A stretch of DNA of 64,000 nt from Nitrospirota bacterium (lineage in GTDB: Bacteria > Nitrospirota > UBA9217): contig CAVTRN010000002.1 in assembly GCA_963737155.1 (NCBI GenBank), positions 1,504,001 through 1,568,000 on the forward strand, in the 5' to 3' direction. Both the position numbers and the translations under genes were made by a program. Of this stretch, positions 36,596 through 58,918 are shown one piece after another (the first letter of the stretch is position 1; every line of letters starts with the position of its first letter). Under the pieces are notes generated by a model. The model saw only the letters and a list, made by a program, of their open reading frames with translations, was not told the DNA's origin and ran no database searches.

Positions 36596-36747
36596 TGCAT
36601 CAGACCGGATCCCCCGGGCGAATAACTCTCCTTGGGCACGAAATGAGCAATGCTTTAAAAAAACGTCAATGTGAATAAGCAACGAAATCGATGCTTCTAA
36701 ACGCGATATACTTAGAATGATGAATTAGTATCCCCAAGGAGAAGTCT

Positions 36748-37120
36748 ATGAAAACGGCAAAGGGTTTGTGGATCGACCATAGAAAGGCCGTTATCATGGC
36801 TGTTACGGAGAAAGGAGAGGTAGTAAAAGAGATAGTTTCATTGGTGGAAAAACAACTCGGCCGTTTTGAGGGCATGCGCTCAACGACTCCCTATGAATCT
36901 CAGCTGGTTCCGGCAGATGATTCACAGGAAAGAGGTCTACGGGACATCTCGTCAAATACTACGCGAGGTGATATTGCATCTTAACGATGCGGAATTAATC
37001 CTGATCTTTGGTTCCGGCGAGGCAAAGGGTTCCAAGCTGAGTGGCCGTGTAGCAGGTATTGAGACAGTTGACAAGATGACCGATCGTCAGAGTGCGGCGA
37101 AAGTCCGGACGTACTTGTAA
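36748..37120 (+). pseudogene. release-factor-fold / host-attachment-like protein, frameshifted
   Basis: GLWIDHRKAVI..., shift, ILIFGSGEAK...ETVDKMTDRQ..AKVR. Confidence 0.7.
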
Positions 37121-37312
37121 AACAATGTTCAGAAATAGGGTTGAGGTAAAAAATCAGCCTGGTGCCCGGCAAGGTCCACTGCAACGGAAGAAGGCAGGTC
37201 GCTGTGTGCGAGCTTGATTGAACCGCAATACGCTAACATCTTTCTTCCAATTGTGCAACCGCCTTGGCAATGCCACTATGGTCCCTTCAAGATGCCGAAC
37301 TATCTTAATAAC

Positions 37313-42442: not shown

Positions 42443-43564
42443 ATGGGCGGTATAGAGATTATTGTTGCGGAAGGGGGGTCGGAATTAAAGGACTTCATTG
42501 ACCTGCCGTGGAGGATCCATGCTAAGCACCCCAACTGGGTTCCTCCCCTTAAGAAAGAGGTTCTCCGGATGCTGGACCCCCACAGACACCCTTTCTGGGA
42601 GTTTTCTGAGGGCATCCTCTTTCTGGCCCGACGTGGTTCGGAAACGGTGGGAAGGATCGCGGGCATCATAGATCGCCGTTATAACCAGTTCCACAACGAA
42701 AAGATGGGCATCTGGGGATTCTTCGAATGTGCTGACGATCCGGAGATTGCGGCAGCCCTCTTCTCTTCCGTGGAAACGTGGGTTCGCCGGAAAGGGATGG
42801 CCTTCATGAGAGGCCCGCTCAACCTGTCCACCAATTACGAGGTGGGCTTGCTCATTGAGGGCTTCAATTATCCGCCTGTCGTGATGATGGCATACAACCC
42901 GCCGTACTACCTGGGGCTGGTCGAATCGTGCGGCTACACCAAAGAAAAGGACCTGTTGGCTTTCCTGATAGATGGCGAGTACCGGCTTCCTGAGTGGATG
43001 GATCATCTTGCTGAACGGATAGCCAAAAAAAAGGGTATCCATATCAGGCTCTTTCGTCCAAAAGAAGAGGATGCTGAGTTTGCCCTTATCAGGGAGATAT
43101 ACAATGCCTCTTGGTCCAGTAATTGGGGTTTCGTCCCCCTGACCGATAACGAAATGCGGGACATTCAAAAGAACGTAATGGAATTCGCAGATCCGGACTT
43201 GGCTTTTTTCATCTATTATGAGAATGAACCCGCAGCAGTATGCGTGATCTTTCCCGACATTAACCCATTGCTCAAGCGTCTTAACGGGCGGATCGGTCTC
43301 ATGGGTCTGCTGAAGTTCCTCATATATCGGCGTGAGATCAAGGGACTGAGGTGTTTGATGTTCGGGATCAAGGAAGAGTACCGACAACTGGGAATCCCTT
43401 TGCTTGCCTTTCACCACATATATGAGATCGCGAGGAGACAAAAGAAATATCAGCAGCTGGAGATGGGCTGGACCCTGGAGGACAACGAGTCGATCAACTC
43501 TTTGATTGATGAAGCGGGCGCAAAAAGATATAAAAAATATCGAATATTCAGAAAGTCCTTATGA
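42443..43564 (+). CDS. YghO / bacterial ceramide synthase-like GNAT acyltransferase
   Basis: FIDLPW...WVPPL, VGRIA, GFFEC, RGP, GLLIEGF, YNPPYY, WGFVP, PDIN, WTLEDN. Confidence 0.85.
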   Translation: MGGIEIIVAEGGSELKDFIDLPWRIHAKHPNWVPPLKKEVLRMLDPHRHPFWEFSEGILFLARRGSETVGRIAGIIDRRYNQFHNEKMGIWGFFECADDPEIAAALFSSVETWVRRKGMAFMRGPLNLSTNYEVGLLIEGFNYPPVVMMAYNPPYYLGLVESCGYTKEKDLLAFLIDGEYRLPEWMDHLAERIAKKKGIHIRLFRPKEEDAEFALIREIYNASWSSNWGFVPLTDNEMRDIQKNVMEFADPDLAFFIYYENEPAAVCVIFPDINPLLKRLNGRIGLMGLLKFLIYRREIKGLRCLMFGIKEEYRQLGIPLLAFHHIYEIARRQKKYQQLEMGWTLEDNESINSLIDEAGAKRYKKYRIFRKSL

Positions 43565-44100
43565 TTATATAGCCTTGCATAAATAGGGCTACCTCTGCTT
43601 ATTTTCTCTTAGCTCCGCTAGCTGCTTATATGAACTAAACATGTACCGTTATTAACGCAAGTTGGCAAACATCCGGGTGGATGTTAATATTGCTGCGCTT
43701 TTGTTGATCAAATTGATTTTAGGCAATGCAATTTTAGAGTATTAAGGATAAGCTCACGATCGTTCGGGAGCTTCTTCTTGAAAATATGTTTGCCGTTCTC
43801 ATCCTCAATGCCAAGGTACGTGTTGTTTTAATGTAGGTCTAATCCCGTGAACAATTTCATATAGCATCTCCAAGGTTAGAATGGGCCTCTTTCCTTAAAG
43901 CATACCAGAGTGCCGATTCGCTTTGGTATGCTGAGGTGTCTTCATATGATTATCAACGATGGTAGTGTATTTGATGGGCAAGAGTGCAATGGTGGTATTT
44001 AAAGGGAAATCACGAACGAGCTCGCTGGGAGTTGGATGGTTCAGGTGGTAATGATTGGTTGACGTTGGCCATGGGGCAAGGGTAAAATAGTAAGGACCGA

Positions 44101-44958
44101 ATGAACAGCAAAGCAACCGTACGAGCATGTCGAGAGAGCCTCCTCGAGTTGATGAAATGGCTGGTGGGGGTTGCGATCGGATTCGTTCACCAGACGCCCA
44201 GGCTCCACGCTCCGATGCAACCCGACGGCTGGAGTGCCCAGCCCCTATCGGTTGCGTGCCGCTTTGCCCCTGATGCCGACCTTGATCACGCCACCGGAAC
44301 GCCCGTGGGGGACGAGGGATTTTACCTCTACATCCTGAACGAAGCTGCCAATTGGGACTACAGCGATGCGAAGTCGATTCTCTTCTCGATTTGGCAGCGT
44401 CCGTGGGCGCATAGTTGGATCATCCTGGAAAGTCCCCAGGATCGTCAGGAATTCGGCCACACCGGCGACTTCGGGCAAACGAGGCCGCGTTACCATGAGG
44501 GCGTGTTTCAGAGAATTCGGGATGGGCATCCCGATCCTATCGCTTACTTGTGGCAAATGATGTCCGATGGCCAATTCCAGATTGGCAAGCCCAATCGCCC
44601 GCCCTCGTTCGTCTGGCGAATGCCGATTACCCGGCGACGGTATCAATTGATCTATGAATATGTGTTGCAGCGGAAGTATGGCCAGTTCGGCGTGAGGGCC
44701 AACAACTGCACCGATATGGTGATAGAAACGGCGGCGCTGGCGGGTATCAACCTGATTCACCGCATTCGCCTCACCTTGCCGCCGGAAGCAAAGGTTTGGG
44801 GTCGGACGCGGCGTGTTTGGACGGATCCCCAATACCGCATACTGGAGTACAGTACGCCCGACGTTCTGGAGGCAGATCTGCGCCAGCTTGCCCGGTTAGG
44901 GATCGGGAGTGATGCCACGGAGTGGCATCTTGCTTTGATGCGGGGACGATCGAGCTGA
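44101..44958 (+). CDS. hypothetical protein, possible permuted papain-like (His...NNC) fold
   Basis: AHSWII and YGQFGVRANNCTD motifs. Confidence 0.7.
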   Translation: MNSKATVRACRESLLELMKWLVGVAIGFVHQTPRLHAPMQPDGWSAQPLSVACRFAPDADLDHATGTPVGDEGFYLYILNEAANWDYSDAKSILFSIWQRPWAHSWIILESPQDRQEFGHTGDFGQTRPRYHEGVFQRIRDGHPDPIAYLWQMMSDGQFQIGKPNRPPSFVWRMPITRRRYQLIYEYVLQRKYGQFGVRANNCTDMVIETAALAGINLIHRIRLTLPPEAKVWGRTRRVWTDPQYRILEYSTPDVLEADLRQLARLGIGSDATEWHLALMRGRSS

Positions 44959-45018
44959 TACGTGGGCGCATCGGGTGGAATATACCCAACTGGCGAATTG
45001 TCATTAAAAGGTGAATGC

Positions 45019-48000
45019 ATGGTGATGAAGCAGAGGTCTGACATAGTGGCTGAGCATGGGATCTCTATCATCGGTTTTGTCTGGCGGCCTGAGGAGATCA
45101 CCCCATCGGTGATTCAAATGGCTCAGCGAACAGGGAGTAGGGCCGTCTTCGATTTTTCCATGACGAGGGTGGAGGGGTTACGTTCTTTCTTGCGAAAGGC
45201 TGACCCTGCCGGCCGCGTTAGGGACATCAAAATTGCTGTCCCTGCCTTCTTTGATCCATCGTTGGGGCAGTTATTGAAGGAAACTGGGGTCGACGACATC
45301 TGGGTAGAGTGCCATCCCGAGTTCTTTCAGGGAGATCCTTCCCTCTTTATGCAGCGATTGAGGGAATTGTCGGAAAACCACCATTGCTTTCCCATCATCG
45401 GTGACATGGATCTCCTGATAGCGATTTTGAAGGATAGCTCGGGCATCGGGCGCATCGTCCTGAAAGGATGCGAGGCCTCTGGATTTGTGAGCGGTGAGAC
45501 GACCACGGCTCTCTATTCGATGGCCAAGGAAATGCTGCATTCGCCCTCAAATGCTCTCGACATCCTAATCTGGGGAGGCGTCTCTACCCCTGAGGCGGCA
45601 GCGGCATTTCTGTCGACCGGGGCAACTGGGATCGTTTTCGAGAGCGTCCATTGGCTGACAGATATGGTTGCCATGGATGATGTTCAACGCCAGCAACTCT
45701 CCAATCTCCGCCTGGATTCTACCGATCTGGTTGGCTTGGATCTGCAGGTTCCCTGTCGCCTTTTCAACAAAGGAAACTCGCTTGCGTTCAAGGAGATTAA
45801 AACGTTTGAGGATTCGCTGCGCGGAGCGGAGATTACGGAAGAAAGCCGCCGCTCTTTTGTAAGCCAGGTGTATGCCAGTGCCCTCCATCCTTTGGAAAGC
45901 CGTTTCGGTCAGTATGAGGTCATCCCTCTTGGCGTGGAAGCTGCCTTTGCTGGGTCGTTTGTTGAGCGTTTTGGGGCTGGAACTGAGGAGGCCGTGAAAG
46001 CCTTCATCGACGAAATTCGTAACACATGCCGACTGGCTGAGGCAAAAAAGGATTGCTTTCTGGACAGTCCTGTCGCCAGAGAGATGGGAACCCTCTACCC
46101 CTTTATCCAGGGTGCCATGTCCTGGATCACGGATGTCCCGGAGTTTGCCGCTAGAGTTGCTGATGCCGGTGGATTGCCCACCATCGCCCTTGGCCTGATG
46201 GACGCAGAGACCCTTGACCGGAGGCTGGGACGCTTGCCGGAGATCATGGGGGGGCGCCCTTATGCAGTGAATGTCGTCTCTTTGGCAGAGAACCCTTTCC
46301 GGGAAACGCATTTGGCCTGGATAAAGAAACAGAGACCCAGTTTTGTCGTGATCGCAGGTGGCGATCTCTCCCCTTTGAGAGAATTGATAGAATGCGGCTT
46401 AGGGGTTATGTATATTGCTCCTGATGAGGCGCTGCTGAAACTCGCCGTGGAAGCCGGCGTTCGGTACGTGGTCTGCGAGGGGTATGAGGCCGGCGGCCAC
46501 GTTGGGCAGCATAGCACGCTAACCCTTGCTCAAATGGTGCTGGATCTGAAACGGCGCACGCCATCCCTGTTCAAGAACTGTCGCGTGATCCTTGCAGGGG
46601 GAATCTTTAATCGGGAGACCGCATTCATGGCCGCCATGCTCGGCGCGGACGCCATCCAGATGGGCACCGCCTATCTGGCCACCCAGGAGATCGTTGAAAC
46701 GGGCGCCTTGACGGCACTCTATCAGCGGCTGATTCTGAAATCGCCTCCGGGGGGAACAGTCGTTTCAGGCCGGGACACTGGACTTCGGGTGCGGTCCTTG
46801 AAGACCCCGAGAGTTGAAGCTATTTTATCTCTGGAGAGGGAGTTTGCAGCAGGCCACCAGGACGAGGCTTCTTTCCGGGTGAGAATGGAGGAAATGGCTG
46901 CGGGGAGCCTCTTCGCTGCAGCCCGGGGCATGGATAGGCCAGGCGAGGTGTCACTGGATGAACGGGCCTGTCTGGAACGAGGGCAATTCATGAGTGGGGC
47001 CTGCGCCGGTCTCATACGCGAGGTCCAAAATCTGCAGTCCTTTCACCGCGATCTGGCCGAGGGTCCTCTCTCGCTGCATCTGCCCGCTGTGGGTTCGATC
47101 GAGAGAACCGCGGAGGCGCCATTCTCCTCGGTCAGCCCGGGACGGAAGCGAGTTGTGCCCCACGGAGACGATCGTGAAAGGGTTGCCATCACCGGGATGA
47201 GCATACTTAATGCCCTGGGGAAGAGTCCGGAGGAAGTCTGGACTTCAAGCCTGGCCATGAAGAGCGGGATTACCTTGGTTCCGCCTTCGCGGTGGGATCA
47301 CACACTTTTCTATGATCCCCGGCCGAACGTTCCGGACAAGACCTACTGCAAGGTGGGCGCCTTTACCGATTTTCATATTTCTCGCAATGACCTCGGGATT
47401 TCTCCCCATGATTTCCGTTCCATGACCGAAGCAACAAAGATCACCCTGTGGTTGGCGGACAAGGCCATCCGGGCATCGGGTATCCTCGATTCGGACATCC
47501 CGCGCGAACGGATCGGCGTCCTCATCTCCCAGAACTCGGGAGAGGCGGCAGGGGTTCTTACCAATACCATAATCAGGGCGTACGTTCACGATATCCTCAT
47601 TTCCGCCAAAAGGGCCGTGCACCTTACGCCGCACCAGGAGAGCGCCATCGAACGAGAGGTGAAGTCAGGACGCATGTCACCTGACGACACCACACTTCTG
47701 GGCAGACTCAATTGCGCGGTGGCCGGCTTCATCTGCAGCCGGTATGGGTTCATGGGGCCAAGCTACGCCGTCTCTGCAGCCTGTGCGACCTCGCTGGTTG
47801 CACTTCACAGCGCCATCCAGATGATCCGGAGCGGTATCATCGATGCAGCCATCGTTGGCGGGGGCGAGGAGAATCTCACTCATTTGCATTTTCTGGAATT
47901 CTCCGCCCTGGGCGCACTTTTCGGGATGTCCGGAAAGGAAAGACCCGCTCACGAGACCTCCCGTCCCTTCGATGCAGAACGAGATGGGATGATCCTCGGC

Positions 48001-51000
48001 GAAGGCGGGGGGATGATCGTCATCGAGCGGGAAAGCCTGGCCCGCGCACGAGGGGCGCGTCTCCACGCATTCGTGACAGGCATGGGAGCGAGCAATAACC
48101 ATCTGAGCATGGTGGAGTCCTCCCATGTCACCCAACAGATGGCCATCCGTGCCTCTTTCCGAGGGATACCCTATGGACCCGATGCCGTGGACCTCGTGGA
48201 ATGCCATGCCACGAGCACCCGGCAAGGGGACGTGGAGGAGGTCCGCGCTCTGAAGGCCGTCTTCAATTCCTCCAAGCGCACCGTGATCACCTCATTCAAA
48301 TCCCAGATAGGACACACGCTGGGCGCCTCGGGTATTAACAGCCTCATTCGAGGAGTCACGGCTATGAAGGCGGGGATTTTTCCTCCTACCCTCAATTATA
48401 TGCATCCAGATCCGGAAATCGACTTGAACGGATCGGGTCTCCTCATCGCCCCGGAGCCACTTGACTGGACTTGCAGGGTCGGCGAGCCAAGAAGGCTTCA
48501 GGTCAATGCCTTCGGGTTTGGAGGTTCCAACTACGTTGCGCAGGTGGAGCAGGCTATGGATGAATCGGATACGATCCTGGTCTCACCCGGCAGAGAATCC
48601 GGACTTGATAGAGAGAAGAGGGATGGCTCTCCCACGCTCCAAGGCGTTTTTTTCTTTCGAACTGAGATCGACGGCCGCAATCTCCGGCTGGCCGTCGTGG
48701 CGCAAACCGAAGAGAATGCGCTCATGGTCATCGAAAGGTCGGCCTCCATCGTCGAAGCCGGGGTTGCCTCACCCAGAATATTGAGATCCTTGGCGCAGCA
48801 GGGGATTTTCATGAGCCCCGAGGATATGCCGGCCCTACCGCTTGCCTTTGTATTTCCCGGACAGGGATCACAGTACGGAGGAATGGGGCTGGATCTCTAC
48901 GAGTCCTTTCCCGTCATCAAGGAGTGGATGGATCGGGCTGCAGTTGTAGCGGACTTCGACCTCCTTCATTTATTGTTCCACGATCGAGAGGAGAATCTTC
49001 AGAAGACCCGGTGGCAGCAACCTGCCATGTTCGCCATGGAACACGCCATGGCTCGATACCTCACTACTCTGGGTATCCATCCCGTGGCCATGGCTGGCCA
49101 TAGTTTGGGCGAACTGATCGCCTTGTGCCTGGCCGGTGTCTATTCCGCGGAGGACGGATTTCGAATTGTGAACAAGAGGGCCCTCTGCATGGACAAGGCC
49201 GCTGCCATTCACAGGGAACCCGGCGTCATGGCGGCCGTGGACGCTCCCCTGGATCTGCTGAAAGAGATGATCCGGGGACGGGAGAATGTCCACATCGGCA
49301 ATATTAATTCACCGAACCAGGTCGTCCTGAGCGGTAACACCGGGGCGGTCAAGGATATTGGCAAAAGACTGAAGGAAATGGGATACCGGGCCACCCTGCT
49401 GCCGGTTAGCATGGCCTTCCACTCTCCTAACATGAGGGTCATTCATGACGAGCTCGAGGCGTACATTGCCTCCATTCCATTTAATTCCCCGCAGATTCCG
49501 GTCATCTCCAACACGACCATGGCACCGTATCCGTCAGATCCCGGGGAAATCAGGCGAATCCTGATGGCTCACCTGGAATCTACCGTCCATTGGATGAATA
49601 ATGTCCAGACCCTCTGGAATGACTACGGAGCCCGGCTCTTCGTGGAGGTGGGCCCCGGAGAAATACTAAGCAATCTCATCTCAGACACGCTTCCTGAACC
49701 GGTATGCATCCAGACGTGCCTTCCTTCCGCAGAGGGCCTGACCTACAAGACCGCTCTCGCTCAGCTCTTCGTTCAGGGTCATCTAAGGGCTGAAGGAGAA
49801 CTGCGGTTTGTTCCCCTCCCTGCAGTCGGAAAAACTCCTGGGTCTCGCCGGATCGCCCCGGCACCCTCGTTATGGCCGTCGGAACCTGGGCTTGCAGGCT
49901 CCAACCCGGTGGAGAGGATCATCCAAAGGGAAATCAACCGATTCGTGATGAAGAACTTCGGACGCTCCCTTAAGCCCAACATCCTGGAAGCGATCCGCCA
50001 GGAGCTTGACCCAACATTCCAGGAAGGCGACCTGTCATCCGTCATCAGATCCATGTTTGAGGGTTCCGGGCCTCCTGAAGATCAGAAACAGGTCGTTCTC
50101 GGTAAACCGGCATCCCCGTATTTCGATTCCACACGTTCCATTCCGGGACAGGCCTCACTTGCCCCCGGTGAGGCGTCCGAGGGCCAGGATCTTATGGAGA
50201 GGCTTATACGGATCATCATGGATGCTACAGGGTTCAATAGGGAGGAGATCCAACCCGATATGGATCTCAGGAAGGACCTCTCCATCCGGTCCAGCCGCCT
50301 CCCCATCATCATGGATGCTGCGGAACGCCAATTCGGGATCACTATCGAATTGGAGGATTTTATCAATGTCCGCACTGTGAAAGACATTGCCCAGAGAATC
50401 TCCAAGATAATCGCCAGGCAGGGAGGTACCGTCCTGACGCCAGCCACTCAGACGGCTGAAGCGGGCTTCATGCACGGTAAAGCCCTGAAGCCCTCTCCGG
50501 CCATTCCGGGACAGGCCTCCCTTGCCCCCGGTGAGGCGTCCGAGGGCCAGGATCTTATGGAGAGGCTTATACGGATCATCATGGATGCTACAGGGTTCAA
50601 TAGGGATGAGATCCAACCCGACATGGATCTCAGGAGGGACCTCTCCATCCGCTCCAGCCGCCTCCCCATCATCATGGATGCTGCGGAACGCCAATTCGGG
50701 ATTACTATCGAATTGGAGGATTTTATCAATGTCCGCACTGTGAAAGACATTGCCCAGAGAATCTCCAAGATAATCGCCAGGCAGGGAGGTACCGTCCTGA
50801 CGCCAGCCACCCAGGCGGCTGAAGCGGGCTTCATGCACGGTGAAACCCTGAAGCCCTTACAGGATGAGTCGAGTTTAAAGCGGCTCGTATTCAAGAGCGT
50901 TCCTCTGAAGCTATCGGCCCCGGCTCCACTACAAATGAGCCCAGGCGAGTCAGTGCTTCTTCTGTCACCGGAAAGGGATGACGAGATTGCTAGGAATGTC

Positions 51001-53337
51001 GATGATATATTCCGGCAGGATTATGGGGTTGACACGATTCCCCAACTCTTTATGAAGGAGAAAGATGCTGGACAAAAAGATTGTGATATTCTAACTGATG
51101 AAGGATCCCGTAAGGTATCGGAGCGAATATCGAGTTTGACGTCCCTGGCCGGGTTGGTTATCACCTTACCGAAAGGTTGGTCGGGAAAGTTAAAGGGCAT
51201 GGCTGATGTTTCGCGACTCCTTAGGGGACTCTTTCTCCTCCTGAAGCCATTTCTTCAATCACCGGCAAAGAAATTCGTGGTGCTGATCCATTCCAGGGAG
51301 GATACCGAAACTCTCGGTCGGCTGCTGGCGGAAGGGATGCTTGGACTTTTTCTGAGCGCAGCGCAGGAACACCCATCTGTCCAGTTTCGCACCGTAGAGA
51401 TTGGGATCGATACCGACCTTCGCGTTGCCTTGCGCGATGCTCTGGACAGAGGATGCACTGTAGTGGAGATCATGCATCGTGATGGAAGGGTCTTCACTTC
51501 GGAGGCACACCTGGCCCCTTCAATTTTCGGGAATTCACCAGGTCTGGCCCTGAGCCCTGGAGACGTTGTCGTCATGTCCGGGGGCGCAACCGGGATCAGC
51601 GCTCACTTGGCCCGCAGCCTTGTGCCTTTCGCGCCCCGCCTGGTCTTTCTGGGAAGGACCCTTCTCGATTCAGGCATCCATCCAGAAAAGCCGCGGACCG
51701 GACATTCGGCTTCCGAGGCGTTCTCTTTAGACCCAAGGGCAGCGGAGATTGCCCGGATGCTTGCGGATCTGCACTCCGCGGGGGTCGAGGCAATCTATCG
51801 TACCTGCGATGTAACCGACCCCGAAGCGGTCCGAGCGATCATGGGCGAGGTGACAAACCATTATGGCAGGATCGATGGGATCATTCACGGCGCCGGTGTC
51901 CTCAGGGATGGCCTATTAATCCAAATGACCCCGGAGGATCTCTCCCTGGTCATGGACGTCAAATTCCTCGGGGCCTGGAATCTATTCTCAACTGCAGAGG
52001 GGGCCGGCCTGAGGTTTTTCGTGGGCCTCTCCTCGGCGGCCGCGATCCAGGGGAATCCTGGCCAGGCCAACTACGCTGCAGCCAACCGGATGATGTCTGC
52101 GTTACTCGGAAACCTCCGCCGGAAGAATGGCGCCATCCGGTTCAAGGCTTTGATGCTTCCCCCTGTCGAGGGGACGGGCATGGCTGAGGACCCGGAGGTT
52201 CGGGAACTGATGAAGCGGAAGGGCGCGGCGTACATCCATGTAAATGAGCTTGCGGGGCTTTTCTGCCGGGAGCTCTTCATAGCCCCGGCTGACGATGATT
52301 GGGTGATGTTCATGCGGAGGCTGCCATCCGTGAGGACGGCACTGCTCAACGATACAGCCCGTCCTTCACTCAGCGGAGAACTGGATGGAGGCACCGTATC
52401 CTTAAGCCCTGAAAACTTTCCCATGATAGAAAGGATCTCTTTTCTGGACATCTACCGGGAAGAACTGGAGGCCTTCAGATCCTTCTCCCGGGAGAAGGAT
52501 CATTGGATCGAGGATCATCGGCCTTTCAAGTTCGTCAAGCATCCTCTGGTCTCAGCCGCAATGGTCCTGGAGATATTCATGGAAGCCGCCCGTATGCTAT
52601 ATCCCCATCTGCAGGTGCGAGGAGTTAGCCGGGTGCGGTTCATGGACATGATTGAATGTCCCCCCGGGGTTCCACGGACTTCCAGGATATCGTGCCGCCG
52701 GACCGGCAACGGCCTTCGGGAGGTAGTGTGCGAGGTCTCTCTCGCAGCACAGGAGATCTCCCCCGCTGGGAGATTGACCGACCTTCTTACCCCGCACTGC
52801 AAGGGCCACGTGATCCTTGATGGCGGGGATGGCGGAGGAGAACATGTCGGAGAGGTGCTCCCGGATTTTACTGTCCGGCTGGACGAACTGCGGACGAGGC
52901 CCATGGATCATAAAAAAGTGATTAAATGGTATGAAGACCGCAGCGGCCTCGGAGGCAGGTATCGTGTGATGGAGTTCCTTGACGGTGCGGGTCCAAGAGT
53001 GGTGCGGGGCCGAACCATATACCGTGAGACAAGTGATTTCGCACATCTCCGGAGCACCCAGTACCAATATTCTCCCTACCTTTTCGAAGCCCTTTTGCAG
53101 ATGGCCGGCTTCCACGTCGCTGCAACGGACCCCTCAGAGCGACGATCGATGGTCCCCATGGAGATAGGGGACATGAGGTTCTTGCGCAAATGCCGGGCAG
53201 GGGAACAAATAACCCTGGAGGCCCGCATGCGGGCGCAGGATGACAAAGGCGTCGTCTGGGACGCCAGAGGGATTGACGACCAGGGCCGCACCGTCATGCA
53301 GATTCGTGGCATTCGGTTGCACTGGGTTTTGGATTGA
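45019..53337 (+). CDS. iterative type I FAS/PKS (Pfa-like): FabK/NMO-like x2 - KS - AT - ACP - ACP - KR - DH
   Basis: EAGGHVG, AGGI, QMGTAYL; KS ACATS / CHATST / IGHTLGAS; AT FPGQG / GHSLG / AFHS; KR GGATGI / YAAAN; DH DHRP...EALLQ. Confidence 0.93.
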   Translation: MVMKQRSDIVAEHGISIIGFVWRPEEITPSVIQMAQRTGSRAVFDFSMTRVEGLRSFLRKADPAGRVRDIKIAVPAFFDPSLGQLLKETGVDDIWVECHPEFFQGDPSLFMQRLRELSENHHCFPIIGDMDLLIAILKDSSGIGRIVLKGCEASGFVSGETTTALYSMAKEMLHSPSNALDILIWGGVSTPEAAAAFLSTGATGIVFESVHWLTDMVAMDDVQRQQLSNLRLDSTDLVGLDLQVPCRLFNKGNSLAFKEIKTFEDSLRGAEITEESRRSFVSQVYASALHPLESRFGQYEVIPLGVEAAFAGSFVERFGAGTEEAVKAFIDEIRNTCRLAEAKKDCFLDSPVAREMGTLYPFIQGAMSWITDVPEFAARVADAGGLPTIALGLMDAETLDRRLGRLPEIMGGRPYAVNVVSLAENPFRETHLAWIKKQRPSFVVIAGGDLSPLRELIECGLGVMYIAPDEALLKLAVEAGVRYVVCEGYEAGGHVGQHSTLTLAQMVLDLKRRTPSLFKNCRVILAGGIFNRETAFMAAMLGADAIQMGTAYLATQEIVETGALTALYQRLILKSPPGGTVVSGRDTGLRVRSLKTPRVEAILSLEREFAAGHQDEASFRVRMEEMAAGSLFAAARGMDRPGEVSLDERACLERGQFMSGACAGLIREVQNLQSFHRDLAEGPLSLHLPAVGSIERTAEAPFSSVSPGRKRVVPHGDDRERVAITGMSILNALGKSPEEVWTSSLAMKSGITLVPPSRWDHTLFYDPRPNVPDKTYCKVGAFTDFHISRNDLGISPHDFRSMTEATKITLWLADKAIRASGILDSDIPRERIGVLISQNSGEAAGVLTNTIIRAYVHDILISAKRAVHLTPHQESAIEREVKSGRMSPDDTTLLGRLNCAVAGFICSRYGFMGPSYAVSAACATSLVALHSAIQMIRSGIIDAAIVGGGEENLTHLHFLEFSALGALFGMSGKERPAHETSRPFDAERDGMILGEGGGMIVIERESLARARGARLHAFVTGMGASNNHLSMVESSHVTQQMAIRASFRGIPYGPDAVDLVECHATSTRQGDVEEVRALKAVFNSSKRTVITSFKSQIGHTLGASGINSLIRGVTAMKAGIFPPTLNYMHPDPEIDLNGSGLLIAPEPLDWTCRVGEPRRLQVNAFGFGGSNYVAQVEQAMDESDTILVSPGRESGLDREKRDGSPTLQGVFFFRTEIDGRNLRLAVVAQTEENALMVIERSASIVEAGVASPRILRSLAQQGIFMSPEDMPALPLAFVFPGQGSQYGGMGLDLYESFPVIKEWMDRAAVVADFDLLHLLFHDREENLQKTRWQQPAMFAMEHAMARYLTTLGIHPVAMAGHSLGELIALCLAGVYSAEDGFRIVNKRALCMDKAAAIHREPGVMAAVDAPLDLLKEMIRGRENVHIGNINSPNQVVLSGNTGAVKDIGKRLKEMGYRATLLPVSMAFHSPNMRVIHDELEAYIASIPFNSPQIPVISNTTMAPYPSDPGEIRRILMAHLESTVHWMNNVQTLWNDYGARLFVEVGPGEILSNLISDTLPEPVCIQTCLPSAEGLTYKTALAQLFVQGHLRAEGELRFVPLPAVGKTPGSRRIAPAPSLWPSEPGLAGSNPVERIIQREINRFVMKNFGRSLKPNILEAIRQELDPTFQEGDLSSVIRSMFEGSGPPEDQKQVVLGKPASPYFDSTRSIPGQASLAPGEASEGQDLMERLIRIIMDATGFNREEIQPDMDLRKDLSIRSSRLPIIMDAAERQFGITIELEDFINVRTVKDIAQRISKIIARQGGTVLTPATQTAEAGFMHGKALKPSPAIPGQASLAPGEASEGQDLMERLIRIIMDATGFNRDEIQPDMDLRRDLSIRSSRLPIIMDAAERQFGITIELEDFINVRTVKDIAQRISKIIARQGGTVLTPATQAAEAGFMHGETLKPLQDESSLKRLVFKSVPLKLSAPAPLQMSPGESVLLLSPERDDEIARNVDDIFRQDYGVDTIPQLFMKEKDAGQKDCDILTDEGSRKVSERISSLTSLAGLVITLPKGWSGKLKGMADVSRLLRGLFLLLKPFLQSPAKKFVVLIHSREDTETLGRLLAEGMLGLFLSAAQEHPSVQFRTVEIGIDTDLRVALRDALDRGCTVVEIMHRDGRVFTSEAHLAPSIFGNSPGLALSPGDVVVMSGGATGISAHLARSLVPFAPRLVFLGRTLLDSGIHPEKPRTGHSASEAFSLDPRAAEIARMLADLHSAGVEAIYRTCDVTDPEAVRAIMGEVTNHYGRIDGIIHGAGVLRDGLLIQMTPEDLSLVMDVKFLGAWNLFSTAEGAGLRFFVGLSSAAAIQGNPGQANYAAANRMMSALLGNLRRKNGAIRFKALMLPPVEGTGMAEDPEVRELMKRKGAAYIHVNELAGLFCRELFIAPADDDWVMFMRRLPSVRTALLNDTARPSLSGELDGGTVSLSPENFPMIERISFLDIYREELEAFRSFSREKDHWIEDHRPFKFVKHPLVSAAMVLEIFMEAARMLYPHLQVRGVSRVRFMDMIECPPGVPRTSRISCRRTGNGLREVVCEVSLAAQEISPAGRLTDLLTPHCKGHVILDGGDGGGEHVGEVLPDFTVRLDELRTRPMDHKKVIKWYEDRSGLGGRYRVMEFLDGAGPRVVRGRTIYRETSDFAHLRSTQYQYSPYLFEALLQMAGFHVAATDPSERRSMVPMEIGDMRFLRKCRAGEQITLEARMRAQDDKGVVWDARGIDDQGRTVMQIRGIRLHWVLD
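50138..50856 (+). repeat. 363-bp tandem duplication encoding two ACP domains
   Basis: Units start at 50138 and 50501 and are near-identical. Confidence 0.92.
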
Positions 53338-53385
53338 GCCTCCCGGACTCGGAAGGGACGCAGACCGGGAAGCAGGGGAGCGAAT

Positions 53386-54120
53386 GTGGCAAAGGATCGC
53401 GAAGGAGTAACCGTCCATACGATGAGTCCCGTTCCTCGAAGGGGGCCGGTCTTCTATGCATCCCTGCCACGTGACACCGAAGCCCCCACGGGACAGGGTA
53501 CGAACGGAGAAGATGACAAGCACCGCCTCGTCTCCGCCTTGTGGGATCACCTTGTGGCGATGGAAAATCCTCTTTGGAAACGCTGTCAATCTTCCACCAG
53601 CGCTGCTTTCCCAATTCAGGTGGTCCGCGGCCTGCTTGGCAGGCCCCATCTCCTGTTGGGAGAATCCCATGGTCCGGCCATCTCCTTCAGCGAGGGTGGA
53701 GGAAAAGTCTGGGCTGCTCTTTGTGGCGATGAGTCTGATATCGGCATTGATGCGGTAGGGACCGATGAATTCCATAGAGGATACCCTTATCAACGGGTCT
53801 TCCATCCGCAAGAGCTCCAACATGCCCAGGGATTGGCGGGCGGAGATCTGGAAATGGCATCAGCCCTGCTCTGGTCCATCAAGGAAGCCATAGTCAAGGC
53901 ACTGGGATGTGCATTCCATCTCGTGGATCCGCGGCAGATCACCGTCAATCCATCGGCAGGGGGGAACGGCGTGTATACCTTTCCGGTTGGCTTATCAGGG
54001 AAGGCCCTTGCGCGATTTCCCCTGGCTGCGCGTGGGTCCTTATGGGTGCATTCGCTTCCCCAGAGCAAGATGTGGCTTTCCATCGCCCTCTTGAACCGGA
54101 GACCAGCAGACCATGAATAA
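53386..54120 (+). CDS. 4'-phosphopantetheinyl transferase
   Basis: GRPHL, ISFS, IGID, WSIKEAIVKALG. Confidence 0.85.
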   Translation: MAKDREGVTVHTMSPVPRRGPVFYASLPRDTEAPTGQGTNGEDDKHRLVSALWDHLVAMENPLWKRCQSSTSAAFPIQVVRGLLGRPHLLLGESHGPAISFSEGGGKVWAALCGDESDIGIDAVGTDEFHRGYPYQRVFHPQELQHAQGLAGGDLEMASALLWSIKEAIVKALGCAFHLVDPRQITVNPSAGGNGVYTFPVGLSGKALARFPLAARGSLWVHSLPQSKMWLSIALLNRRPADHE

Positions 54121-55291
54121 CCTTACCTGCAATCACGTGCCGCGGTCAGACGGAGTGCCGGCGGCAGATCTTGGACGGCTTTTCCCAGAGCCGTCTATTA
54201 CCGCCCCCCTTCTTTCGCTGTTACAGGAATCGGGTATTGACGGTTTTAACCTGCGCAGTATCGTGGTGTCGAAAGATGATGTTCCTGTTCTCTTATTGCC
54301 GTTATTTGAGACTCGTTTTGATTTGTCCACTTTTGCGGAGGGATGGATCAAGAAATCGCTGAAAGTGTCAGGCCGTCTCGTCCCCTCGGTTTTTCAACCC
54401 CGCGTTCTGGGCGTGGGATTGGTGGAAGGGGAATGGAGTGAAATCGGGATCGATCCTCAAATCGATGAGGGCACCCTAGATGCGGCGTGCAACATGGCCT
54501 TGAGCGTCCTGCACACGCTTGCGGCCGAACTTAAAAGCGACATCGAGGCGCTTTACAACTTTAATCAGTACAGCAAGCTTCCCGGGGAAGTATTCAAGAA
54601 ATTCAACCAGGTGCAATTTAGGTCTTGCGCCCGCTTGCCGATCAATTTTAACAGCATGGAGGAATACCTAGGTCGCCTTTCAAGTGCCGCGAGAAAAGAC
54701 CTGCACCGCAAAATGCGGGTTGCCCCCGAAATCCGGGTAATTCGAAGTCGTACTATTTCGCCTTTTCTGGACAGGATCTACCAGCTTTATCGGGAAACAG
54801 TGGAGCGCAGTCCCATGGCGCTTGGCGTGCACAACCGTTTATTTTTTGAAAAGATCTGTGAAAAAGTACCGGGCGCCGAGTACACGCTCTATTTTGTGCA
54901 GGAAGAACTCGCCGCTTTCAACCTTCTCGTCATAAAACAGCAATGGATGGAGGATATATATTTCTGCATGGATCACGAGCTTGGCAGCAACTACAACCTT
55001 TATTTCTTATCCTGGCTTGAAAATGTCCGCACCTGCGTCGAGCGGAAGATCCCGCTCTATTACGCGGGCCAGGGCACGGAGAAGACCAAAGCGCATATGG
55101 GTGCGACGTTTATCCCGAGCTTTATTTTATTCAAGCACCGCCATCTGGTATTTGACCGTCTTCTTGCCGGGCAGCCGGCGTTGATTGCGAAGGTCCTCAG
55201 CCATCTCGGGTTTTGGCCAGCCGCCTCCTCGAGCCGCTTCGGATGTTCTGGCGCGGAGCCGACAGGAGCAGGTCCTTGTACGCCGCCTTGA
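54113..55291 (+). CDS. GNAT / FemAB-like acyltransferase
   Basis: MEEYLGRLSSAARKDLHRK, LYFLSW, GQGTEKTKAHMGA. Confidence 0.8.
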   Translation: MNNLTCNHVPRSDGVPAADLGRLFPEPSITAPLLSLLQESGIDGFNLRSIVVSKDDVPVLLLPLFETRFDLSTFAEGWIKKSLKVSGRLVPSVFQPRVLGVGLVEGEWSEIGIDPQIDEGTLDAACNMALSVLHTLAAELKSDIEALYNFNQYSKLPGEVFKKFNQVQFRSCARLPINFNSMEEYLGRLSSAARKDLHRKMRVAPEIRVIRSRTISPFLDRIYQLYRETVERSPMALGVHNRLFFEKICEKVPGAEYTLYFVQEELAAFNLLVIKQQWMEDIYFCMDHELGSNYNLYFLSWLENVRTCVERKIPLYYAGQGTEKTKAHMGATFIPSFILFKHRHLVFDRLLAGQPALIAKVLSHLGFWPAASSSRFGCSGAEPTGAGPCTPP

Positions 55292-55402
55292 TCCGGTCGC
55301 GCAGAAGAATGAACTCAGACGGGGTGAGCGTCTTCAACGCCCGCAGAAGTCCTGACGTAACAACGTTCAATACCGTTTCCCATAGAGGCGAGATGGAGAT
55401 TC

Positions 55403-56353
55403 ATGACCAAAGAAACTGAATACGCAATCGAAGTCGAAAAACTGACGAAGCGATACGTGGATTTACTGGCGGTCAAAGACATATCGTTCAACGTCAGGAA
55501 AGGCGAGGTGTTCGCCCTGCTGGGGCCGAATGGCGCCGGCAAGACCACTACCGTCGAGATCATCGACACAATCCGCACGCCCACGTCTGGGAAAGTGACC
55601 CTTCTTGGCATGGACGTCACGAAGAAGAAGCATAACATCGTCCACCGCATCGGCGTCCTCCCGCAGGGGTTCAGCTCTTTCGACAGGATAACGGTCAAAG
55701 AGACCTTGCAGTACTACTCGCGGCTTTTCAGCCACCCGAAAACCGATATTGACGGACTAATAGAGCTCGTGAACCTCAAGGACAAGACCAAAGAGCAGTA
55801 CAGGAACCTCTCTGGGGGACTGAGGCAGCGCCTAGGAATCGCGATCGCGCTTGTGAACGATCCCGAGGTCGTGTTCCTCGACGAGCCGTCGACAGGGCTC
55901 GACCCCCGAGCAAGACGCGAGGTGTGGGAAGTCCTGCAAGGGCTGAAGAAAAAGGGGAAAACGGTGTTTCTGACCACACACTACATGGAGGAGGCGGAAC
56001 TTCTTGCAGACACGGTCGCAATCATCTCGAGGGGGAAAATCATCGCGATGGGCTCACCCGGAGAACTCATCGAAAACAACGCACATGACTTGGTTCTTAC
56101 TCTGCAGTCCGTCGATGAAAAAGTCCTACACATCGTCCGGAAGATGGGCTTCAAGACGGCTCTGAACGACCATAACATCAAGATCAGGCTGGAGCACACG
56201 GACGATGTGCAGAAGATACTGAGCGCCATCAAGGATGCCGGGGCGTTGTACCTCGGCTTGGATGTTCGGAAACCCAACCTTGAAGAGGTCTTCCTGAAGC
56301 TCACCGGCGAGGTGCTCCGCGATGGTCCCGTCGGGGCAAAGGGGGCGGAATGA
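55403..56353 (+). CDS. ABC-2 exporter ATP-binding protein
   Basis: GPNGAGKT, LSGG, LDEP, TTHYMEEA. Confidence 0.95.
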   Translation: MTKETEYAIEVEKLTKRYVDLLAVKDISFNVRKGEVFALLGPNGAGKTTTVEIIDTIRTPTSGKVTLLGMDVTKKKHNIVHRIGVLPQGFSSFDRITVKETLQYYSRLFSHPKTDIDGLIELVNLKDKTKEQYRNLSGGLRQRLGIAIALVNDPEVVFLDEPSTGLDPRARREVWEVLQGLKKKGKTVFLTTHYMEEAELLADTVAIISRGKIIAMGSPGELIENNAHDLVLTLQSVDEKVLHIVRKMGFKTALNDHNIKIRLEHTDDVQKILSAIKDAGALYLGLDVRKPNLEEVFLKLTGEVLRDGPVGAKGAE

Positions 56354-57465
56354 ACCTGCGCATCATCGGTGCAAATCTCTTCGTGAAACTCATGAGTGTC
56401 TACCGCGAGAAGGCCGCCATGTTCTTCACGATTGCGTTCCCGATAATCCTGATACTCGTGTTCGGTACGATCTTTATGAGCAAGGACAACGTGAGCTTCC
56501 ACCTTTGCGTGCAGGACCTCGACCAGACGAATTCGTCCGCACAGACCGTCAAGGCCCTCGAGCTCGACGGGAAGTTCAAGATAACCAAGGTCGACCCGGC
56601 CATCAACGCCACCCAGTACATCAGGGACAACAAGGTGAACCTGGTCCTCGTTATTCCCAAAGGCTATGAAAGGTCCCTCTCGCAGAGGGCGATGTTCAGC
56701 GACCCCACCGCATCCGTCACCATCACCTATATATACGACCCCAGTTCCTCTTCGGTGCCCACGAAGATACAGATCCTGAACGCGGTGATCGCCGGGATTA
56801 ATCAGAAGATGTCCGGGACGCCGCCGTTCATCAGGTCGGCCGAGACATCGATACTTACCAAGAAATACCGGTTCATCGAGTTCTTCATTCCCGGCATCAT
56901 CGCAATGGCGGTGATGACGTTGAGCCTGTTCGGCACGGTGAACTTGAACACGGAGCTGCGACAGAAGGGCATCATCAGGAAACTGTCTACGACGCCTATC
57001 ACCCGTACCGACTGGATACTTTCGAACATTCTGTTCCAGTTTACGATCGCGGTCATATCCACGATCGCGATGCTGCTGGTAAGCTATGCCGTGTTTCACG
57101 TCCGCCTGCATATAGATGCATGGCTCCTTGTGTTCATTTTGCTTGACGTCTTCGCGTTCGTTGGGATCGGGATGATACTCACCCGCTTCGTCAAAGAGGC
57201 GCAGAGCGCCGCCGCCGCCGCAAACGCCATCAGTTTCCCAATGATGTTCCTCTCCGGGAGTTTCTTCCCCATCGAGCTGATGCCGGGCTTCCTGCAGACA
57301 TTCGCCAAGATACTGCCGCTGTATTACGTGAACGAGGGGCTCCGGGCATCAATGATATTTGAAGACAACATGGCTGCGCTGCGTTACTCAGCGATCATAG
57401 GGGTTTTTGCGGCCGTGGTCTTCATCCTGGGCATAATAGCCACCAAGTGGGAAGAGGACGCGTGA
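56350..57465 (+). CDS. ABC-2 exporter permease
   Basis: TM, periplasmic loop, further TMs; FIPGII, FLSGSFFP. Confidence 0.92.
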   Translation: MNLRIIGANLFVKLMSVYREKAAMFFTIAFPIILILVFGTIFMSKDNVSFHLCVQDLDQTNSSAQTVKALELDGKFKITKVDPAINATQYIRDNKVNLVLVIPKGYERSLSQRAMFSDPTASVTITYIYDPSSSSVPTKIQILNAVIAGINQKMSGTPPFIRSAETSILTKKYRFIEFFIPGIIAMAVMTLSLFGTVNLNTELRQKGIIRKLSTTPITRTDWILSNILFQFTIAVISTIAMLLVSYAVFHVRLHIDAWLLVFILLDVFAFVGIGMILTRFVKEAQSAAAAANAISFPMMFLSGSFFPIELMPGFLQTFAKILPLYYVNEGLRASMIFEDNMAALRYSAIIGVFAAVVFILGIIATKWEEDA

Positions 57466-57565
57466 TATAGCATAGTACTCCCTTCGCATCATCACTCAAG
57501 GAAGGAGGTTCGGCAAAAAAGACGCTGGTTGGTTTTATGGAAAAAAATATTGGAGAGATGAAAAC

Positions 57566-58918
57566 ATGAAAATAAAACTTATCGCACCCCATGAACATCG
57601 TCAAGACGCTTTATCCAGCCCTTTCAAGTTCCAAAGGGTGAATCTTCCTCTTCTGTCTGCGCTTACCCCGCCCGGCCACACAGTGACCCTTGTCGAGGAA
57701 TCTTTTGCGCCCGATGACATCAATCAAGATGTTGATTTGGTGGGCATCACCGTCTTGACCGAACTTGCGTTAAGAGCCTATCATATCGGTGACACCTATC
57801 GCCAGAAGGGTGTGAAGGTGGTGATGGGAGGAATACACCCCACGGTATTGCCAGACGAAGCTTTAAAGCATGCAGACGCTGTCGTTGTAGGAGAAGCGGA
57901 GGGCGTCTGGCCGCGACTTGTATCGGATGCCGCCTTGGGACAGATGCAAAGGCTATATCGGGCGGGTAAAATGACCGATCTCAAAGGCCTACCGAAACCA
58001 CAGCGAAATCTCTCACCTGGAACCAACGGTAAAGGTTATATCCCGATCCCGATCGGCGTCGAGACATCCCGCGGCTGTCCGTACGATTGTGAATTCTGTT
58101 GCATTGGCCAGACATTGGGGCATCAGTATCGAGTCAGGCCGGTTCAGGAGGTGATTGCCGAGATAGAGTCCATTGATTCCCCTCACCTCTTCTTCGTCGA
58201 TGACGCCCTTGGACTGAACCGGAATGCAGCGAAAAAGCTCTTTACTGAAATGATACCTCTTCGGCGGCGATGGCTGGCGCAAGGAACAGTGTCGTTGGCT
58301 GAGGACGTGGAGCTGCTCAGATTGATGGAACGTGCGGGGTGCCTGGGGCTTTTGATCGGGTTCGAATCGGTACAGAAAGGAACACAGAATGAGGTGAATA
58401 AAATAAAGAACCTGAGAATCGATTTTTATGAGGCCATGCATCGATTCCATGGCGAAGGTTTCGGTATACTCGGCTCCTTTGTTTTTGGCTTTGATTACGA
58501 AAATAAGGATGTGTTCGAGCAGACCCTTGAGTTTATAATGAGGAGTCGTATGGATGTTGCCCAGCTGAGGATTCTCACTCCTTATCCGGGAACACGGTTA
58601 TATGAGCGTCTCTTAAGCGAAGGCAGGTTGTTGGCCCGTGATTGGTGGCTCCGTGGATATCCTCCGGATACAGTCCTTTATCAACCCAAGGGCATGACTG
58701 CCGACGAACTCATTAACGGCTTCTCCCGCTTGAACAGACAAGTATATTCTTTCGGCGCAATGACAAAACGATTCTTTGGCATGAGCCCATGGAAACGGAC
58801 TCTGCTCGGCTGCCAGGCGTACGTTGGAGTCAATCTATCTACTCGTAAACGCTATTTCAAAGGTCTGAAGAATCCACAACCATTTGCAGAGGCTTCCAAC
58901 TCAATAGAAAAGCGGTAG
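57566..58918 (+). CDS. B12-binding radical SAM protein
   Basis: VVMGGIHPT, VVGEAE, SRGCPYDCEFC, TPYPGT. Confidence 0.93.
   Translation: MKIKLIAPHEHRQDALSSPFKFQRVNLPLLSALTPPGHTVTLVEESFAPDDINQDVDLVGITVLTELALRAYHIGDTYRQKGVKVVMGGIHPTVLPDEALKHADAVVVGEAEGVWPRLVSDAALGQMQRLYRAGKMTDLKGLPKPQRNLSPGTNGKGYIPIPIGVETSRGCPYDCEFCCIGQTLGHQYRVRPVQEVIAEIESIDSPHLFFVDDALGLNRNAAKKLFTEMIPLRRRWLAQGTVSLAEDVELLRLMERAGCLGLLIGFESVQKGTQNEVNKIKNLRIDFYEAMHRFHGEGFGILGSFVFGFDYENKDVFEQTLEFIMRSRMDVAQLRILTPYPGTRLYERLLSEGRLLARDWWLRGYPPDTVLYQPKGMTADELINGFSRLNRQVYSFGAMTKRFFGMSPWKRTLLGCQAYVGVNLSTRKRYFKGLKNPQPFAEASNSIEKR

Follow-up and report, generated by a model that had tools for sequence, protein, structure and literature searches.

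The window analysed here is a 64,000-nt stretch of contig CAVTRN010000002.1 from a Nitrospirota bacterium (assembly GCA_963737155.1). It holds a cassette of eight co-directional genes, g1 to g8 from left to right (Table 1), in which an N-acyltransferase of the GNAT superfamily is accompanied by its own iterative type I fatty-acid/polyketide synthase (FAS/PKS), a phosphopantetheinyl transferase (PPTase), an ABC-2 transporter pair and a B12-binding radical S-adenosylmethionine (rSAM) enzyme. From domain content, gene order, family relations and distribution we suggest that the cassette is a horizontally acquired module that adds a dedicated acyl chain to the bacterial ceramide pathway, a reading that we consider probable. 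That the cassette is part of sphingolipid metabolism can be said with good confidence, and whether the synthase product becomes the N-acyl chain rather than the long-chain base is an even call. The acceptor is most likely a sphingoid base, which would make the cassette a branch of ceramide synthesis. Below, L-numbers denote loci and G-numbers denote genomes.

All eight genes are full length when set against their orthologs. An earlier, sequence-only reading of this DNA had described eight co-directional genes, and open reading frame (ORF) checks, Pfam, NCBIfam and ortholog lengths bear this out, with all eight intact and on the plus strand. The identities that it gave, including a YghO/bCerS-like g1 and a self-contained reducing synthase, agree with the Pfam and NCBIfam matches, the fold and the homology. 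It had also described a pathway with no serine palmitoyltransferase (SPT). This is correct for the window, as all four matches of the genome to the alpha-oxoamine synthase (AONS) family fall elsewhere, but not for the organism, whose genome contains two SPT copies, each with a canonical neighbouring GNAT.

Over its full length, the protein g1 shares 38% identity with the GNAT next to SPT in its own genome (E 3e-97) and 33% with E. coli YghO (E 3e-68). With tblastn, it is 42-43% identical to the GNATs of five Gemmatimonadota loci (L073, L076, L077, L079 and L080), all five of which adjoin SPT. According to the RefSeq names, the neighbours of yghO in one uropathogenic E. coli (UPEC) genome are a fatty acyl-AMP ligase (FAAL), an NAD-dependent epimerase, an acyl carrier protein (ACP), a serine palmitoyltransferase and LptG/LptF. 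In a maximum-likelihood tree the cassette GNATs form one clade (support 97/90) nested among the SPT-adjacent GNATs, with very short internal branches and the phyla intermixed. The identity to YghO, the neighbours of yghO and this nesting support the YghO/bCerS-like label. Structurally, the AlphaFold2 model of g1 (predicted local distance difference test, pLDDT, 85.2) shows a tandem GNAT fold. Its top Foldseek matches are the tandem GNATs 5kf1 and 2wpw (E ~1e-13), and 7q3a and MshD are further matches of the same kind (E 1e-10 to 1e-13 for the whole set). Single-sequence and profile searches of g1 against the PDB sequences gave nothing useful, and the Pfam match to Acetyltransf_6 reaches 18.9 bits, under the curated cut-off of 22.

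The cassette recurs widely. A scan of species-representative genomes with g1 gave 151 pattern matches and 123 confirmed relatives; 80 loci were kept, and 69 of these are at least 65% identical to g1. The order GNAT, (g2), synthase, PPTase, (g5), ABC ATPase, permease, rSAM is found at more than 100 loci of other genomes, in several phyla and at 65-90% protein identity. The synthase lies directly downstream of a cassette-type g1 at 62 of 62 loci with at least 1.5 kb of downstream flank, versus 0 of 11 loci with distant GNATs. With g8 as the query, the permease lies upstream of the rSAM gene at 52 of 53 loci (at least 3.5 kb of upstream flank). Where the upstream flank of the rSAM gene reaches at least 9 kb (43 loci), the synthase is found at 38, the ATPase at 40, the PPTase at 33 and g5 at 25. 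The g8 orthologs are 70-91% identical at 78 of the 80 loci kept from this second search, with L150 at 56% and L155 at 72%. Carriers are labelled Thermodesulfobacteriota, Nitrospirota, Acidobacteriota, Planctomycetota, Verrucomicrobiota, Aminicenantota, Deferrimicrobiota and others. Thus, the genes that the sequence-only reading grouped together do co-occur in other genomes and are not a chance neighbourhood.

In many of these genomes, genes for SPT and for short-chain dehydrogenases/reductases (SDRs) resembling CerR abut the cassette. SPT (at least 50% identity) or AONS (30-50% identical) was counted within 10 kb, using only loci whose flank on the side in question reaches 5 kb or more. By this count it is present upstream of g1 at 6 of 50 loci and downstream of g8 at 20 of 54, together 26 of 104. 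On the upstream side, an SDR-SPT pair precedes g1 at L018, L020 and L023; about 1 kb separates this pair from the cassette GNAT at L018 and L020 (the copies of G009 and G010), and at L020 a PAP2_3 gene lies in between. On the downstream side, SPT follows g8 directly at L082, L083, L088, L091 and L093, and lies a few kb away at L085, L105, L108, L119, L123, L127, L131, L135-L137, L141 and others. A variant form of the cassette includes a FAAL-ACP-AONS fusion (1131 aa at L110:4510-7905, 1107 aa at L041:562-3885), and this form also holds a PAP2 gene and a CerR-like epimerase. A PAP2_3/PAP2_C protein is the first gene after g8 at 8 of 39 scanned loci, with more examples elsewhere; we take these Pfam families to include sphingomyelin and inositol phosphorylceramide synthases. 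The first gene before g1 is a CerR-like epimerase at 7 of 41 scanned loci, and at L147 a DAGK-type lipid kinase is the first downstream neighbour of the rSAM gene.

The genome of the window (4.84 Mb, two contigs) encodes one BioF and two near-identical SPT-like proteins (best model NF047600, 570 bits, cut-off 640), and both SPT genes are followed by a GNAT of the g1 family. These SPT-GNAT pairs, at G000 C1:1249595-1253659 (L162) and at C2 near 2928051 (L163), are duplicated as a 2722-bp repeat with 99.56% identity. The C1 copy has the order CerR-like SDR, SPT, 370-aa GNAT, and the upstream SDR is seen at this copy only. The two genomic SPT copies, the SPT/AONS genes near other cassettes and the CerR-like and PAP2_3 neighbours are what point to a sphingoid base as the acceptor, and away from the earlier proposal that the chain is offloaded onto another amine or alcohol.

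At the genome level, SPT was checked in 50 cassette-linked genomes, all of them metagenome-assembled genomes (MAGs), picked for long flanks from 160 loci. There is a match to the SPT model at E <= 1e-130 in 31 of them and an AONS domain within an ORF of 1100-1200 aa, like the FAAL-ACP-AONS fusions, in another 8, while 2 are borderline and in 1 the gene is split. Across the phylum, sampled evenly with 301 genomes, SPT occurs in 136 and the cassette GNAT in 4 (this genome included), and all 4 carriers have SPT. In G008, G009 and G010, three of the five genomes checked, the cassette GNAT is the sole member of its family found although SPT is present, and there it presumably serves as the ceramide synthase.

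The evidence for horizontal acquisition is the mismatch between g1 and RpoB, the absence of the cassette from the 13 other genomes of the genus and the flanking mobile elements. The g1 protein is 86-87% identical to copies in MAGs labelled 'delta proteobacterium', whose RpoB is 50-66% identical, but only 79-81% identical to copies in genomes of the same family, whose RpoB is 88-91% identical. The cassette GNAT is carried by 0 of 13 other genomes of the genus and by 2 of 56 of the family. From these comparisons we infer that the cassette was acquired horizontally. It is a clear case of transfer at the pathway level, with a 16-kb lipid pathway 65-90% identical across phyla and RpoB of the nearest cassette donors at 50-66%. 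GC content was also considered as a sign of transfer and set aside: the cassette has 0.50-0.58, the genome 0.49-0.50 and the neighbouring glgB 0.59, so composition is uninformative.

The synthase g3 combines all its domains in one protein. Its best NCBIfam models are PKS_plus_SDR (530 bits, cut-off 1740) and then the PfaA model TIGR02813 (428 bits, cut-off 1010), and with scores so far under the cut-offs it is the equivalog of neither. Pfam and NCBIfam detect no thioesterase (TE), chain-length factor (CLF), ketosynthase (KS)-CLF or FabA-type dehydratase (DH) in g3. The statement of the sequence-only reading that TE, nonribosomal peptide synthetase and CLF genes are lacking was likewise confirmed among the window ORFs scanned (18 of the 19 ORFs picked in 1-34.8 kb and 18 ORFs in 34.7-64 kb), small ORFs lying outside the scan. 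The ACP domains of g3 form a tandem duplication, nearly identical in its two units and with a period of 363 bp (window 50197-50772), and repeated hairpin-like strings occur at 50328 and 50691 in the same region.

The last gene, g8, has the domain architecture expected of a class B (cobalamin) radical SAM enzyme, with Pfam E-values of 1e-9 for B12-binding and 2.5e-13 for Radical_SAM. The peptide pattern YDCEFCCI from g8 holds what would be the second and third Cys of a CxxxCxxC motif. Among the NCBIfam models, HpnJ scores best (102 bits, cut-off 578) and BchE reaches 85 bits; PhpK is also among the named relatives, and as all these scores are far under the cut-offs g8 is the equivalog of no named family. 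The best solved relative is AprD4 (6fd2, 2.5e-14). Class B radical SAM enzymes most commonly methylate an unactivated carbon. For the ATPase g6, the best NCBIfam model is drrA with 269 bits, below the cut-off of 312.

Read from the domains and the gene context, the pathway would work as follows: (i) the PPTase g4 would activate both ACPs of g3; (ii) on its own ACP, g3 would iteratively assemble an acyl chain that is saturated and may be very long; (iii) g1, in the cytoplasm, would take this chain and N-acylate a sphingoid base, either 3-ketosphinganine or a 1-deoxy analogue; (iv) g8 would modify the unactivated chain without oxygen, most likely by C-methylation; and (v) g6 and g7 would carry the lipid from the inner membrane towards the outer membrane. 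The base would be supplied by an SPT encoded elsewhere in this genome and beside the cassette in many others. That g1 offloads the g3 chain is proposed because g3 lacks a thioesterase and the GNAT gene is adjacent. The genes g2 and g5 may encode optional tailoring or remodelling enzymes, of which g5 may add an aminoacyl or acyl group. The available part of PMC11087976 places bCerS in the cytoplasm, as a peripheral membrane enzyme, with the acylation of 3-ketosphinganine preceding export and periplasmic reduction; this fits a cytoplasmic g1 followed by an ABC-2 exporter.

Several observations weigh against a ceramide branch with its own acyl chain. The cassette GNAT clade has a long stem (0.77 + 0.37 + 0.11 changes per site), along which the acceptor or donor may have changed, and the placement of g1 in the YghO/bCerS family is drawn from SPT-adjacent homologues and the RefSeq-annotated E. 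coli cluster, with the Caulobacter bCerS outside the comparison. In the synthase, Pfam detects the N-terminal half of the dehydratase alone and residues 2400-2791 have no solved relative by sequence, so a complete reducing cycle is something we infer. The nearest named relatives of g8 (HpnJ, BchE and AprD4) include non-methylating, ring-forming and dehydrating enzymes. The window itself has no SPT, CerR or PAP2_3 gene adjacent to the cassette, and the link to sphingolipids is made through other genomes and distant genes. There is no SPT/AONS within 10 kb at 44 of 50 loci upstream and 34 of 54 downstream. Among the 50 genomes, 3 have BioF-level scores only and 5 have nothing at E <= 1e-60; however, some of these five blank MAGs come from rSAM loci without the synthase and are perhaps not true carriers. 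Finally, as SPT is common in the phylum, its presence in the same genome is by itself weak evidence.

The strongest competing explanation, which we still find rather unlikely, concerns the destination of the chain. The g3 product would pass to SPT/AONS and be condensed with serine or alanine into the long-chain base, as in Pseudomonas SgaAB, and g1 would be an ordinary ceramide synthase that draws its chain from the general fatty-acid pool. There is precedent for this route, as the accessible text of PMC12134224 reports that an iterative PKS and an alpha-oxoamine synthase yield long-chain sphinganines. Moreover, SPT comes right after the last gene of the cassette at L082, L083, L088, L091 and L093, and in G008-G010, with g1 as the only family member found, it must be the general ceramide synthase. 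However, what always accompanies the synthase is the GNAT (62 of 62 loci) and not SPT (26 of 104 flank-sufficient loci). In the variants with a FAAL-ACP-AONS fusion, this protein would provide a separate route to the base, starting from a free fatty acid, and the product of the synthase would then be left for the N-acyl position. This genome also keeps its canonical SPT-GNAT pair, in two copies, and this fits a distinct donor for g1.

Compared with SgaAB itself, as described for Pseudomonas fluorescens MYb115 in the part of PMC12134224 available, the cassette shares an iterative type I synthase dedicated to a sphingolipid chain and a wide spread of the gene cluster in bacteria. In contrast, SgaAB is a two-gene system of a monomodular PKS and an alpha-oxoamine synthase that makes the long-chain base and is, according to the same part of that source, found mainly in Burkholderia and Pseudomonas. 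The fixed partner in the cassette is a bCerS-type GNAT and the window has no AONS, a distinction drawn from the description of SgaAB and not from its sequence. The cassette synthase is also Pfa-like with an N-terminal FabK-type enoyl reductase (ER), and an rSAM enzyme and an exporter belong to the unit.

A second alternative is the SPT-independent pathway of the sequence-only reading, in which the GNAT acylates an amino acid, a polyamine or a sugar amine to give an exported lipid of lipoamino-acid or surfactant-like type. We judge it improbable. The absence of SPT from the window and from within 10 kb of most loci agrees with it, as do the 5 of 50 genomes without an AONS match at E <= 1e-60 and the long stem of the GNAT clade. 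Enzymes structurally related to g1 use sugar amines and small amines as acyl acceptors, and an ABC-2 exporter with a Fem-like enzyme would suit a secreted lipopeptide-like product. However, the cassette is accompanied by SPT, AONS fusions, CerR-like SDRs or PAP2_3 genes at a rate far above the chance expected for a single-copy gene, and all four carriers in the phylum sample of 301 genomes have SPT. In G008-G010 the cassette GNAT stands alone despite the presence of SPT, and at L018 and L020 it is found about 1 kb downstream of SDR-SPT. The least credible possibility, to which we assign hardly any weight, is a Pfa-type secondary-lipid synthase for hydrocarbons, olefins or polyunsaturated fatty acids with loosely related neighbours: PfaA is the second-best NCBIfam model of g3, and uncharacterised pfa-like types occur in Deltaproteobacteria, Planctomycetes and Acidobacteria, with type I perhaps olefin-linked, according to the available part of PMC3098273, but the cassette is without KS-CLF, a FabA-type DH/isomerase and Ole genes, the PfaA score of 428 bits stays below the cut-off of 1010, and the fixed partners are the GNAT, the ABC-2 pair and the rSAM enzyme.

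Returning to the cassette as a branch of ceramide synthesis, its parts can be set beside three known systems. The Spt-bCerS-CerR ceramide pathway of Caulobacter was reportedly worked out by Stankeviciute and co-workers in 2022. The g1 protein is of the same GNAT family as the SPT-adjacent acyltransferases of this genome, Gemmatimonadota and E. coli, and, as shown above, SPT and CerR-like SDR genes adjoin many cassettes. However, a dedicated type I synthase, a PPTase, a B12 radical SAM enzyme and an ABC-2 pair are not part of the known pathway, and the cassette GNATs form a long-stemmed clade of their own, with both GNAT types present in this genome.

The second system, the Pfa synthases, has in common with g3 the order KS, acyltransferase (AT), tandem ACP, ketoreductase (KR) and DH', a PfaD/FabK-type ER, a cognate PPTase and a patchy distribution shaped by horizontal transfer, as far as PfaA/PfaD are described in the accessible part of PMC3098273. 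It differs in that g3 has everything in one 2791-aa protein with two ACPs only, and that PfaB and PfaC (KS-CLF, FabA-type DH) are missing. The uncharacterised pfa-like types of Shulse and Allen 2011, for example type S (Desulfobacterium autotrophicum) or R, may include the cassette, judging from the part of that paper available (PMC3098273). The third, the yghO locus of E. coli, provides FAAL, ACP and spt functions that are the same as those fused (FAAL-ACP-AONS) or adjacent in the cassette variants, but it lacks both a type I synthase and an rSAM enzyme. In E. coli K-12 (L165, 3129043-3131340), IS5 abuts yghO and the FAAL-epimerase-ACP-spt genes of UPEC (L166) are missing at this position; from the gene content, K-12 appears to have lost a sphingolipid-type locus here.

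The sequence-only reading did not recognise the combination as a characterised pathway, and our full-text literature searches, whose coverage left out most subscription journals, also returned no characterised pathway that matches. The core Spt-bCerS-CerR pathway and the PKS-derived sphinganine pathway are already known. None of these searches turned up a published description of a fused, Pfa-like synthase whose ER is N-terminal and which is combined with a bCerS paralogue, a PPTase, an ABC-2 pair and a B12 rSAM enzyme. To our knowledge, bacterial sphingolipids have recently been found to be far commoner than thought, and the three core enzymes alone are understood. In this context the cassette points to a candidate second type of ceramide synthase, one wired to its own fatty-acid synthase, and it offers candidate genes for oxygen-independent chain modification and for export. 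For genome mining, a Pfa-like or "hglE-type" cluster that carries the cassette GNAT is best read as sphingolipid-related. The cassette could also account for environmental ceramides with unusual acyl chains and for lipid biomarkers in anoxic sediments and soils.

One set of such lipids is known from the euxinic Black Sea. The accessible text of Ding et al. (PMC11334938) describes 1-deoxyceramides with amide-linked C32-C39 fatty acids, of which more than half are odd-numbered, some of the lipids bearing sulfono or sulfate groups. The same text assigns them tentatively to Desulfobacterota or Bacteroidota and names no biosynthetic genes. As a speculation, the cassette can plausibly be put forward as the genetic basis of these orphan ceramides. 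The synthase would then make the very long chain, g1 would have evolved to take it straight from the ACP, and g8 would introduce methyl branches or another O2-independent change, while the unit would be mobile among at least eight phyla of anaerobes as a module for outer-membrane remodelling. Methyl branches or another modification by g8 would account for the odd carbon numbers. As a whole, we regard this extended proposal as unlikely.

Table 1. Features of the window discussed in the text, with the domains of g3 given in residues.
Feature	Position	Strand	Length	Assignment	Basis
g1	42443-43564	+	373 aa	Tandem-GNAT N-acyltransferase, YghO/bCerS family, cassette-type clade	
g2	44101-44958	+	285 aa	Optional exported Cys/His protein of a family without a name, probably papain-like	
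g3	44962-53337	+	2791 aa	Self-contained iterative type I FAS/PKS	
g3, degenerate FabK-like TIM	aa 1-375				Weak match to FabK structures, E ~1e-3
g3, FabK-type ER (NMO/FabK)	aa 376-698				Pfam match aa 376-636
g3, KS	aa 739-1146				Pfam; Cys/His/His visible in translation
g3, AT	aa 1296-1580				Pfam; GHSLG motif visible in translation
g3, ACP1	aa 1746-1813				PP-binding
g3, ACP2	aa ~1862-1937				PP-binding
g3, KR	aa 2203-2409				Pfam; Tyr motif visible in translation
g3, PS-DH, N-terminal half	aa 2656-2787				Pfam
g4	53386-54120	+		Sfp-type 4'-phosphopantetheinyl transferase (PPTase)	Pfam ACPS 5e-11
g5	54113-55291	+		Optional FemAB-like/Acetyltransf_6 GNAT-fold transferase	
g6	55403-56353	+		DrrA/NodI-like ABC transporter ATPase	Pfam ABC_tran 3e-31
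g7	56350-57465	+		ABC-2 type permease	Pfam ABC2_membrane_3 5e-38
g8	57566-58918	+		B12-binding radical SAM enzyme, DUF4070 tail	Pfam B12-binding, Radical_SAM, DUF4070
AsmA-family protein	37214-38782	+			Pfam AsmA 7e-40
DDE_Tnp_1_4 transposase	38913-40280	-		Upstream of g1	Pfam
ORF with TnpB/Cas12f-like C-terminus	40426-42117	+	563 aa		guided_TnpB 41 bits (cut-off 100)

Two members of the cassette are optional, as g2 is present at 23 of 62 loci and g5 at 25 of 43. The protein g2 has no Pfam, NCBIfam or PDB sequence match, its AlphaFold2 model is poor (pLDDT 58.5) and Foldseek finds no match at E <= 0.001. Its description as a His...NNC protein agrees with the conservation, since all 14 aligned orthologs keep H104, H120, C203 (the Cys of 'NNC') and D205 unchanged. 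A lipoprotein-type signal with a lipobox-type Cys is present in 13 of 13 orthologs, so g2 should act outside the cytoplasm, likely as an extracytoplasmic Cys/His hydrolase or acyltransferase. The g2 of the window has Phe (F28, window 44182-44184) at the position of the lipobox Cys and may for this reason escape lipidation. From the weak leads available, namely the TseH and IcsB_M clusters in the ESM Atlas and a faint Peptidase_C97 match in 2 of 25 relatives, g2 is probably papain-like.

For g5, both Pfam matches are sub-threshold, FemAB_like at 23 bits (cut-off 27) and ATE_C at 21.7 bits. In its nearest ESM Atlas clusters (score 0.97), 83-98% of the members carry PF04339 (FemAB_like) or PF13480 (Acetyltransf_6), and g5 can at best be called a distant FemAB-like/Acetyltransf_6 member. 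The sequence-only reading had up to three acyltransferases offloading the chain; this is unlikely, as g2 bears a signal and both g2 and g5 are optional.

Some loci carry additional genes within or next to the cassette. At 12 loci the permease gene and the rSAM gene lie 1765-1855 bp apart. At L127 (8220-10001) and L085 (8201-9979) this gap is filled by a protein of about 590 aa with an N-terminal membrane region and a Sulfatase-family domain. The same insert is listed for L084 and L101, at L082 it is cut to an ORF of 179 aa, and the window is without this gene. At L091, an insert after the synthase (5155-6926) encodes a DNA methylase and an XhoI-type restriction endonuclease, and the reverse transcriptase of a group II intron lies downstream (13760-15118).

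Within the window, no Rfam match at E <= 0.1 to a cobalamin or other riboswitch was found in the 537-bp gap between g1 and g2 or in the rest of 36-64 kb, and promoter-like and terminator-like sites show no excess over the shuffled expectation. Upstream of g1 are a transposase and an ORF of 563 aa (Table 1), the N-terminal 350 aa of which have no assignment. An AsmA/DUF748 protein is the first upstream neighbour of g1 at 4 of 41 scanned loci (L009, L011, L021 and L057), and the AsmA protein of the window possibly belongs with the cassette and is now split from g1 by the two mobile elements. The region 25397-38782 of the window encodes two BON-domain proteins, an AI-2E transporter, an outer-membrane phospholipase A1, FtsH and the AsmA-family protein. 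BON, AI-2E and AsmA/DUF748 genes also flank the cassette at L002, L008, L012, L029, L009, L011, L021, L057, L106 and L133. These upstream genes hint at an envelope-lipid neighbourhood.

Downstream of the cassette, an IS630-type DDE_3 transposase on the minus strand (60490-61524) interrupts the branching-enzyme gene glgB (59517-62630), leaving an N-terminal part at 59517-60470 and a C-terminal part at 61611-62630. Beyond glgB, an ISL3 transposase starts at 62892.

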